A DNA stretch of 63,812 bases, filler included, from Catajapyx aquilonaris (lineage: Eukaryota), in the NCBI GenBank assembly GCA_000934665.2. It is 2 parts of 2 records of this genome, joined end to end, with 100 filler letters (N's around TTAATTAATTAA, not from the genome) between each part and the next. Parts side by side here need not be neighbours in the genome. Positions count along the whole stretch, not along the records: positions 1 to 31,732 come from JYFJ02004493.1; 1 more part is not named here. The stretch is one strand, 5' to 3'. The notes beneath the pieces are model-generated. The model was given only the letters and a program-made list of their open reading frames with translations, did no database searches and was not told the DNA's origin. How positions within the stretch are numbered: position 1 is the stretch's first letter; each line of letters opens with the position of its first letter. Position numbers and translations under genes: made by a program. Below are positions 12,878-14,120 of the stretch, one piece after another.

Positions 12878-14120
12878 ATGACCAAGCATCTCGTGTTTTT
12901 GGTGTTGGTACTTCTTGTCTTCAGTACTGGTACGTTTGTGGGAAGCCCAATATATCTCTATTGTCAAATATTTCCCAGGAAGTACTTCCGGGGTAGTTTG
13001 TTGTAAAAGCCTTCAAGTCTATCAATGATCACGAACTGCATCCTTTACTCCATCCAGGATATCCTTAATCACGACATCAACTGTGACAATCCTATAGACA
13101 ACTCCCTAAATTCACTCAACTAGAAATAGTCAAAATAGAGATAATGTTTTTCTAAATTAAATTGTTTTTTTTTCAGAGGCTTTCATCCAGATTCCATTGG
13201 GATATCTTCTTGGAGGAGGATTGACAATCCTCGGAGGTGGTGCTTTATTAGGCAATAGGAATTATGGAAACTGGGGACAAACCAACTGGGGTTGGCATCC
13301 GCGTGAAATTACTATTCATGAGCCTGCACGTCCACCACCACCTTCACCAGTTGGCAAACAGGTAAGGGGTCGCCACTTCGACAACGAATCCTACGAGACA
13401 CTTTTGCATTTTAGATTCACTGTCCATTTTCAGTTCGCAGAGTGTCTCCTTAAATGCGCTAGGGACAACGGCTTGGACATTTTGCTGAATGTCCACAATA
13501 GGCAAGTTGACCAATCCAGTAAAGCAGGTCAAGATGCCGCTCGGTGTGCTGGTTCTTGTGCTGTCCAAGAGGTAGACAGGGCCAACCCAGCAGCAGGTCT
13601 GAGGTCAAAAATGGAGCAGTGCCTGAGAGACTGTGGCATAGACATGATCTTCAAAGGTGCCACCCTGGATTCGGCCACGTGTGTGGCAAAGTGTGCTGTC
13701 GGAAACAGGAAAAGGCGTCATGCAAGTAGGTATCTTGCTAGGGGCTAATGACTAATTAACTTAAAATATATGATGACTTATCTATGCAGTGTCTTACCCT
13801 CATGTGTCATTTCAGTGCCTGAGATGCTGGAAGCGCTTGTGCCTCGAGCTGAACTTGTGCCTCGAGCTCGCCTGGTGCCCCGAGCTGTGCCCCGGGCTGA
13901 ACTTGTGCCTCGATCCCGCCTGGTGCCCCGAGCTGTGCCCCGTGCTGATCTTGTCCCACGGGCAGAACTTGTGCCTCGATCCCGTATGGTGCCCCGAGCC
14001 GTGCCCCGAGCTGATCTTGTCCCACGGGCAGAACTTGTGCCTCGATCCCGCCTTGTGCCACGGGCTGTGCCCCGAGAGAAGCTTGTGCCGAGGGCAGAAC
14101 TTGTGCCGAGGGCTGACTAA
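12878..14120 (+). CDS. Secreted gene 5: 277-aa protein with Gly-rich hydrophobic N-terminus, four CxxxC motifs, RKRR site and a 17x VPR repeat tail
   Basis: Exons 12878-12929, 13177-13361, 13434-13725, 13816-14120 join in frame. Signal MTKHLVFLVLVLLVFSTEA; motifs CLLKC, CAGSC, CLRDC, CVAKC. Confidence 0.8.
13837..14117 (+). repeat. Coding tandem repeat of 12/18-nt units in a 66-nt higher-order unit, encoding (L/A/M)VPR
   Basis: GTGCC(T/C)CG-type codons repeated 17 times; higher-order unit ADLVPR-AELVPR-SRxVPR-AVPR. Confidence 0.95.

Follow-up and report, generated by a model that had tools for sequence, protein, structure and literature searches.

A window of DNA from Catajapyx aquilonaris (assembly GCA_000934665.2), by which we mean the whole stretch of 63,812 nucleotides analysed, filler included, has the character of animal DNA: its G+C content is about 41% and its genes are spliced. 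One of these, called gene 1 here (12878-14120, + strand), encodes a predicted secreted precursor that ends in a head-to-tail array of 17 short units, each closing with Val-Pro-Arg (VPR). Gene 1 is expressed and spliced as predicted, taking the RNA origin of the supporting contigs from their own splice pattern, and selection keeps V-P-R while the codons drift, as seen in a within-gene test on few units. It is possible, at a probability that we put at about 0.35, that cleavage at an R-K-R-R site frees a disordered tail, which Arg-specific trypsin-fold proteases then cut after each Pro-Arg into peptides of 4-6 residues. What is new here, as read from the sequence, is a secreted precursor with spacer-free, monobasic Pro-Arg tandem units behind an orphan domain with four CX3C pairs.

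The Val-Pro-Arg array and the gene that carries it

Translation of 13818-14120 in the + strand frame gives 100 residues with 17 VPR triplets (12 LVPR, four AVPR and one MVPR), the counts given by a first-pass annotation of this DNA, and the array closes with AD before the stop at 14118-14120. The first unit is the longest; the remaining 16 comprise AELVPR (five), AVPR (four), SRLVPR and ADLVPR (two each) and SRMVPR, ARLVPR and EKLVPR (one each). Outside the tail, 18 VPR triplets occur among 127,620 six-frame codons of the window, which corresponds to 0.014 expected per 100 codons against the 17 seen, and an array by chance is excluded. At the DNA level, Tandem Repeats Finder reported a period of 66 nucleotides (3.4 copies, 87% matches, score 325) and a second period of 48 nucleotides at the start of the array, with copies matching at 82-92%. 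The longer period corresponds to the 22-residue higher-order repeat that had been proposed earlier, AELVPR-SR(L/M)VPR-AVPR-(AD/EK)LVPR at the peptide level, of which three complete units (AELVPR-SRxVPR-AVPR-xxLVPR) lie at 13896..14093 on the + strand, starting at 13896, 13962 and 14028.

The positions before VPR vary: P4 is Leu in 12 units, Ala in four and Met in one, P5 is Glu in five, Arg in four, Asp in two and Lys or Ala in one each, and P6 is Ala in eight, Ser in three and Glu in two. The pair of residues that follows each of the 17 Arg is AE (five), AV (four), SR (three), AD (three), AR (one) or EK (one), so that P1' is Ala or Ser at 16 of the 17 sites and Pro at none. The preponderance of Ala and Ser at P1' had been remarked in the first pass, as had the three SR pairs, all of which directly follow ELVPR. 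Per 100 residues the tail contains 18 Pro, 21 Arg and 11 acidic residues (eight Glu and three Asp), with a net charge of +11.

The four exons of gene 1 were predicted from splice signals and give a joined frame of 277 codons and a stop. Exon 1 (12878..12929) carries the start codon, preceded by an in-frame stop at 12857-12859, and a signal-peptide-like N-terminus (MTKH, 11 hydrophobic residues, then ST), assigned by eye from the sequence. Exon 2 (13177..13361) encodes a Gly/Leu-rich stretch and a Trp/Asn-rich stretch, ends in PPPP and has no Pfam match; the Gly/Leu stretch was considered as a membrane anchor and rejected, since it would presumably place the disulfide domain in the cytosol. The main part of exon 3 (13434-13725) is a domain of 91 residues at 13434..13706, with four CX3C pairs (Cys 4/8, 38/42, 63/67 and 83/87 in exon 3 numbering), for which an AlphaFold2 model built from a two-sequence alignment is all-helical (mean predicted local distance difference test, pLDDT, 72.3; predicted template modelling score, pTM, 0.65). 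Near the end of this exon stands R-K-R-R (13707..13718), the sole dibasic or RXXR-type site in the protein. By sequence it is of the furin/proprotein-convertase type, the motif being R-X-K/R-R, and it is the site that the first-pass annotation had placed before the tail, now located in the exon preceding it. The coding part of exon 4 (13816..14120) comprises a 7-residue lead-in, the 17 units, AD and the stop; the residues between R-K-R-R and the units are H-A-M-P-E-M-L-E-A.

Evidence for splicing comes from contigs of a public sequencing run (X1) that carries 46% of the sampled words of the window. One contig skips all three introns of gene 1 (joints 12929/13177, 13361/13434 and 13725/13816). 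The record of the run gives no RNA or DNA kind; we infer that its contigs derive from spliced RNA because five intron skips were found in two genes, gene 1 and its neighbour gene 2, all of them GT..AG on the + strand. The 13725/13816 joint, which had been singled out for confirmation, is exact and unambiguous (skip of 90, side 158) and removes precisely intron 3 (13726..13815; 90 nucleotides, GT..AG), which holds the in-frame stops TAA TGA. The last base of exon 3 begins a codon, a phase that puts the tail in the VPR frame. A Cys-rich +1 frame across the tail is also open, but translation in it is ruled out by the junction phase together with a ratio of nonsynonymous to synonymous differences of 1.28 in that frame. 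The exon is thus neither left out nor read in the Cys-rich frame, the two outcomes that the first-pass annotation had named as contrary to its reading. Antisense frames are open because the repeat lacks stop codons, and an antisense gene was rejected on the + strand orientation of the GT..AG introns. The X1 contigs break within the tail repeat, at 13973 and 14039 among the pieces listed, and give no cover at 14136-14402 or 16005-17873. The window contains 89 N, none of them within 12300-16300.

Selection on the tail was assessed from the three complete 66-nucleotide units. In the VPR frame the proportion of synonymous differences (pS) was 0.32 and that of nonsynonymous differences (pN) 0.07, a pN/pS of 0.22, against a pS of 0.125 and a pN of 0.159 in the +1 frame (pN/pS 1.28) and a pS of 0 and a pN of 0.18 in the +2 frame (ratio undefined). 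Within the 17 triplets, Val is encoded by GTG (15) and GTC (two), Pro by CCC (seven), CCT (five), CCA (three) and CCG (two), and Arg by CGA (10), CGG (four), AGG (two) and CGT (one). As four Pro codons and four Arg codons are all in use, VPR has been preserved through synonymous change. At least seven codon changes fall inside the triplets and all are synonymous, for which the probability is 9.6e-4 given that 10 of 27 (37%) single-base changes would be synonymous. The earlier remark that synonymous variation preserves VPR is upheld by these counts, and the comparison of dN with dS among units, proposed at the same time, yields 0.22 for the VPR frame against 1.28 for the Cys-rich one.

Such synonymous-biased differences between units favour recognition of the exact tripeptide over a minisatellite that drifts neutrally. 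Were the array neutral, it would be a minisatellite recently amplified within a coding exon and lacking a function of its own, an account with which its nature as a tandem DNA repeat of closely matching copies agrees, as does the fact that the test of constraint is confined to this gene. It is nevertheless very improbable, given the low pN/pS in the frame that is used beside 1.28 or more elsewhere, a pS that marks the copies as old, the wholly synonymous changes in VPR, and a unit grammar common to a paralog only 35% identical.

A paralog and the origin of the array

Gene 2 lies directly downstream of gene 1 (14675..15878, + strand; exons 14675-14732, 14809-14996 and 15402-15878), and an X1 contig skips both of its introns (joints 14732/14809 and 14996/15402). 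It encodes the same four-CX3C domain: tblastn with exon 3 of gene 1 matched gene 2 at E 1e-14 and the reverse search gave E 1e-18, and the alignment shows 35% identity between the two domains, with no change at any of the eight Cys. AlphaFold2 predicted the same helices for gene 2 as for the gene 1 domain. Gene 2 has two extra Cys, and its tail is within the same exon as the domain.

The tail of gene 2 (15786..15875, + strand) consists of four units of the same grammar, IIPR-E, VVPR-T, LLPR-A and AGPR-AD-W, that is, hydrophobic-hydrophobic-Pro-Arg followed by E, T, A and A. With composition correction off, tblastn matched it to the gene 1 tail at E 1.5e-4. In the alignment by tblastn, ELVVPR ... 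LLPR-AGPR-AD of gene 2 stands opposite ELVPR-(A/S)RLVPR-AVPR-AD of gene 1; an ending of the form PRAxPRAD is common to both genes. Because the paralog ends in four units of the same grammar, the 22-residue unit of gene 1 looks like a whole ancestral tail of about four units that was tandemly amplified and that gene 2 retains.

The two genes also differ around intron 3. This intron is in frame with both flanking exons except for the adjacent stops TAA TGA, its site corresponds to a coding linker of 38 residues with two Cys in gene 2, and tblastn aligns gene 2 colinearly through it. Intron 3 may have formed from former coding sequence, for which the similarity within the intron is too weak to be decisive. 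The decayed remains of a third copy of the family lie at 17605..17676 (+ strand), where tblastn with exon 3 of gene 2 found 20 of 29 residues identical (E 1e-6) and the Cys partly replaced; it has no X1 cover.

Protease fit and the fate of the tail

In the reading that we favour, the product of gene 1 would be a secreted pro-protein of 277 residues. A furin-type convertase would cut after R-K-R-R, parting the disulfide-stapled helical domain from a tail of about 100 residues. The freed tail would be disordered, rich in Pro and Arg and positively charged (+11), and would form a head-to-tail row of 17 (small)(charged)(Leu/Met)-Val-Pro-Arg units, each followed by Ala or Ser. Each unit would be recognised not by the secretory convertases but by a trypsin-fold serine protease that is specific for Arg and tolerates Pro at P2; thrombin, horseshoe-crab factor C and many clip-domain proteases share this type of specificity. 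Cuts after every Pro-Arg would then yield about 17 peptides of 4-6 residues (AELVPR, ADLVPR, SRLVPR, AVPR and variants); what matters could be either these small peptides or the fact that the protease is kept occupied. The combination of variable P4-P6 residues with a fixed VPR gives a pattern like that of multi-copy peptide precursors, in which each unit has a variable N-terminal and a fixed C-terminal part, as outlined in PMC11549390. The cluster offers a matching context, as the next genes also appear to encode proteins that have a signal peptide, short acidic repeats and an RRRK or RARR site. Also in favour of this reading are the four Pro-Arg units that gene 2 keeps although its domain is only 35% identical, and the disorder predicted for the gene 2 tail.

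The sites within the tail differ from the R-K-R-R before it, which fits the furin motif and stands behind a signal-peptide-like N-terminus. Proprotein convertases need a basic residue at P2, P4 or P6. Neither RxxR nor a dibasic pair occurs in the tail, where the distances between basic residues are 2, 4, 6 or 8 only, and the furin motif is absent from all borders between units; by these rules the borders are not convertase sites. By their sequence the sites do suit Arg-specific trypsin-fold enzymes that accept Pro at P2, because 16 of the 17 Pro-Arg pairs precede a small residue and none precedes Pro.

The first-pass annotation had gone further and called the units the classic recognition sequence of thrombin and factor C. 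A phage-display consensus for human thrombin has Pro at P2, Arg at P1, Ser, Ala, Gly or Thr at P1', a non-acidic residue at P2' and Arg at P3', with acidic residues disfavoured at P1' and P2', according to the account of it in PMC3288055. All 17 sites have the Pro and Arg of this consensus and 16 have its P1' residue. Up to the cut, the tail therefore resembles the LVPR-GS tag and the Boc-Val-Pro-Arg substrates, with LVPR at P4-P1 in 12 of 17 sites and VPR in all, and this part of the earlier claim stood. Beyond the cut the claim is weaker: P1' and P2' are jointly suitable at only eight of 17 sites, nine have an acidic residue there (Glu or Asp at P2' in eight, Glu at P1' in one) and none has Arg at P3', differences that are measured against a human consensus from which the animal's own protease may depart. 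The further statement that Boc-Val-Pro-Arg serves as a factor C substrate is supported in print, Boc-VPR-pNA being described as such in PMC5302069.

The same cleavability and the same evidence of selection could instead point to a decoy, a cleavable competitive substrate whose 17 Pro-Arg sites soak up an Arg-specific protease and whose released peptides are by-products. Such a bait was the main idea of the first-pass annotation, which gave as its alternative a polyprotein that releases many xxLVPR peptides. The target could belong to the animal's own clotting or melanisation cascade, or be a pathogen, prey or host protease. Multivalency fits capacity rather than information, the factor C substrate just mentioned shows the kind of enzyme that could be engaged, and the tick madanins offer a precedent, inhibiting thrombin and factor Xa even as these enzymes cut them (PMC3741208). 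Like the proposed decoy, the madanins (MEROPS I53) are disordered, Cys-free, secreted arthropod peptides that inhibit by active-site binding and cleavage, as described in the same source. The gene 1 tail is unlike them in being a basic array of 17 units behind a domain that is predicted to be folded, and no similarity to madanins or to any inhibitor family was found in Pfam, HMMER or word-based searches. A madanin is a single peptide, short and acidic, made by a blood-feeding animal. Against the decoy proposal, nothing seen here points to blood feeding, the P1'/P2' part of the thrombin consensus fits fewer than half of the sites and its P3' Arg none, and a pure decoy leaves unexplained why four different units should follow one another in an ordered, conserved succession in each 22-residue repeat. 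We regard it as unlikely. Less likely again is a regulatory version, in which the tail would be a multivalent cleavable substrate array for a Val-Pro-Arg-specific serine protease, of the factor C or clip-protease class, in an arthropod clotting, melanisation or Toll cascade. Through amplification of the whole tail, it would have expanded from four units to 17. By competing as a substrate, and not by trapping as serpins do, it would buffer the cascade or set its timing, and it could also release a new family of signalling peptides 4-6 residues long.

A different fate for the tail, somewhat doubtful in our judgement, is that it is never cut internally. It would remain whole, after or without cleavage at R-K-R-R, as a functional extension that is disordered, cationic and polyproline-like, binding, for example, anionic surfaces, microbes or matrix or serving as a pro-region or spacer for the helical domain. 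Its charge and its content of Pro and Arg are suited to such a role. Among secreted arthropod proteins that evolve fast, repetitive tails of low complexity are common. The gene 2 tail is predicted to be without structure (pLDDT 40-52, no secondary structure from residue 113 in the AlphaFold2 model), and gene 2 keeps this tail without having a convertase site. Binding through charge or composition would not, however, require that all 17 units keep V-P-R exactly, over seven or more synonymous changes, or that P1' be small in 16 of them, and the 11 acidic residues partly cancel the charge.

Several points weigh against the release of the tail and its cleavage after each Pro-Arg. The processing steps are all deduced from sequence, and demonstration extends to the splicing, the frame and the constraint on VPR. 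The X1 pieces listed cover 13816-13973 and 13944-14039 of the tail and contain 12 of the 17 VPR triplets in full, leaving the last units and the stop outside the RNA support. The selection test draws on three repeat units of one gene, with no orthologs. Gene 2 lacks R-K-R-R, so convertase release of the tail is not a feature of the family. The acidic residues beyond the cut at nine sites are a further obstacle, and the tail has no Gly for amidation and no typical neuropeptide pattern. Finally, its units are far shorter than those of known insect polyproteins, whose RXRR or dibasic spacers (PMC8423362) it also lacks.

These polyproteins are still the closest known parallel in layout to the proposed array of released peptides. 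Baramicin A (PMC8423362) and the apidaecin-type pre-pro-polyproteins (PMC11549390, PMC3415428) are likewise secreted and consist, in the descriptions drawn on here, of related short peptides arranged head to tail; in them too the C-terminal part of the unit is conserved and the N-terminal part variable, and the protein contains a furin-type site. Gene 1 has the signal peptide (by eye) and the tandem related peptides that mark insect multi-peptide precursors. In such precursors RXRR or dibasic sites stand between one unit and the next, often together with dipeptide spacers (PMC8423362). Unlike them, the units of gene 1 are 4-6 residues long, directly abutting, and end in a single Arg after Pro, with no RxxR or dibasic site between them. 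In the known insect multi-peptide precursors the units are much longer. HMMER and word-based searches found no sequence similarity of gene 1 to these precursors. Since the spacer feature fails and no sequence relation was found, gene 1 is not filed as a member of the insect polyproteins.

Cleavage as proposed would make the tail the most compact arthropod precursor peptide array found in print, with 17 units per 100 residues and no spacers, and monobasic Pro-Arg sites, of the specificity class of clotting and immune proteases, would be used in place of convertase sites. The outcome would be either a new family of very small secreted peptides or control of a protease cascade through a multivalent substrate that is sacrificed. 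A tail that stays uncut would be an ordinary repetitive tail on a lineage-restricted secreted protein, of interest for its clear selection signal and for the way in which its repeat seems to have arisen from an entire ancestral tail.

Relatives and neighbouring genes

The gene 1 family has so far been found in one lineage only, with no relative, Pfam family or solved fold in the libraries searched. HMMER with the Cys domain of gene 1 against 1.84 billion representatives gave no convincing relative; two matches (E 7e-6 and 6e-4) were to repeat proteins of 600-611 residues with only 17-27 residues aligned, and were judged spurious. Word-based protein searches returned nothing at E <= 0.01 with exon 3 of gene 2 (proteins of 86-277 residues) and nothing at E <= 0.001 with the gene 1 tail (proteins of 55-175 and 176-2000 residues). 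Pfam gave nothing below E 0.07, and for the tail alone nothing below E 0.7. A metagenome scan with the two-paralog alignment found the pattern in 159 stretches, none of which was confirmed, and the ESM Atlas held no usable match for gene 1 or gene 2.

Structural comparisons gave a similar picture. The best Foldseek match in the PDB had E 1.8, with scattered insect odorant- and pheromone-binding proteins at probabilities of at most 0.16, and the best of 48,161 chains in VIA-align reached Z 6.3 (a designed helical repeat); for helical models a Z of about 13 is required. Run against PDB sequences, a profile built from both paralogs aligned TIM9 chains over the third and fourth CX3C pairs at E 0.8, which is not significant. 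The small Tim proteins, TIM9 among them, are helical hairpins with twin CX3C motifs. In gene 1 the four CX3C pairs, unchanged between the paralogs, are placed on helices by the predicted model. The small Tims differ in being mitochondrial and in having one twin motif, whereas gene 1 has a putative signal peptide and two twin motifs. In the literature, supplements excluded, searches for the unit strings and for LVPR tandem-repeat precursors found no description of an array of VPR units. A search pairing Val-Pro-Arg with prophenoloxidase likewise found nothing, and the papers on hemolymph clip proteases among the matches listed made no mention of Val-Pro-Arg.

Downstream of gene 2, a second small gene is present in three tandem copies on the + strand (16187-16620, 18035-18406 and 19378-19871). 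It has a signal-peptide-like first exon (MQFSHISLICF...), followed by an exon with four to five heptads of the ADPDPYA type, after which come an acidic stretch, RRRK and a C-terminal peptide of 14-15 residues; Pfam gave only a weak, below-threshold match to PARP repeats. Counted from the residue after the first Leu, the copy at 18035-18406 has 20 consecutive dipeptides ending in Ala or Pro. The pro-regions of melittin and apidaecin are removed stepwise by dipeptidyl peptidases, and by analogy the X-Pro/X-Ala register of this copy recalls such pro-regions. At 16256-16620 the frame is broken between two overlapping open reading frames. A segmental duplication of about 1.6-2 kb (15243-16265 against 17329-18000 and 19087-19524) takes in the beginning of this ADPDPYA gene together with the 3' part of gene 2; of gene 2, the middle copy keeps only the decayed piece. 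In one X1 contig 18182 is linked to 19729 with TG..TC ends, which most likely reflects the collapse of two copies into one and not an intron.

Further from the cluster, a single frame of 650 codons at 7206-9155 (+ strand) weakly resembles ionotropic glutamate receptors in their ligand-binding and channel domains (E 9e-7 and 4e-6, both just short of the threshold), and may be a divergent intronless gene of the ionotropic-receptor type. On the opposite strand, an ABC transporter gene has exons at 24052-29381; it encodes ABC_tran (E 2e-28) and ABC-2 membrane domains and is of the ABCA type by its layout. An open frame at 53017-53616 (+ strand) runs through long poly-Ile and poly-Asn tracts, which are microsatellites of the ATT/AAT type, and is probably non-coding.

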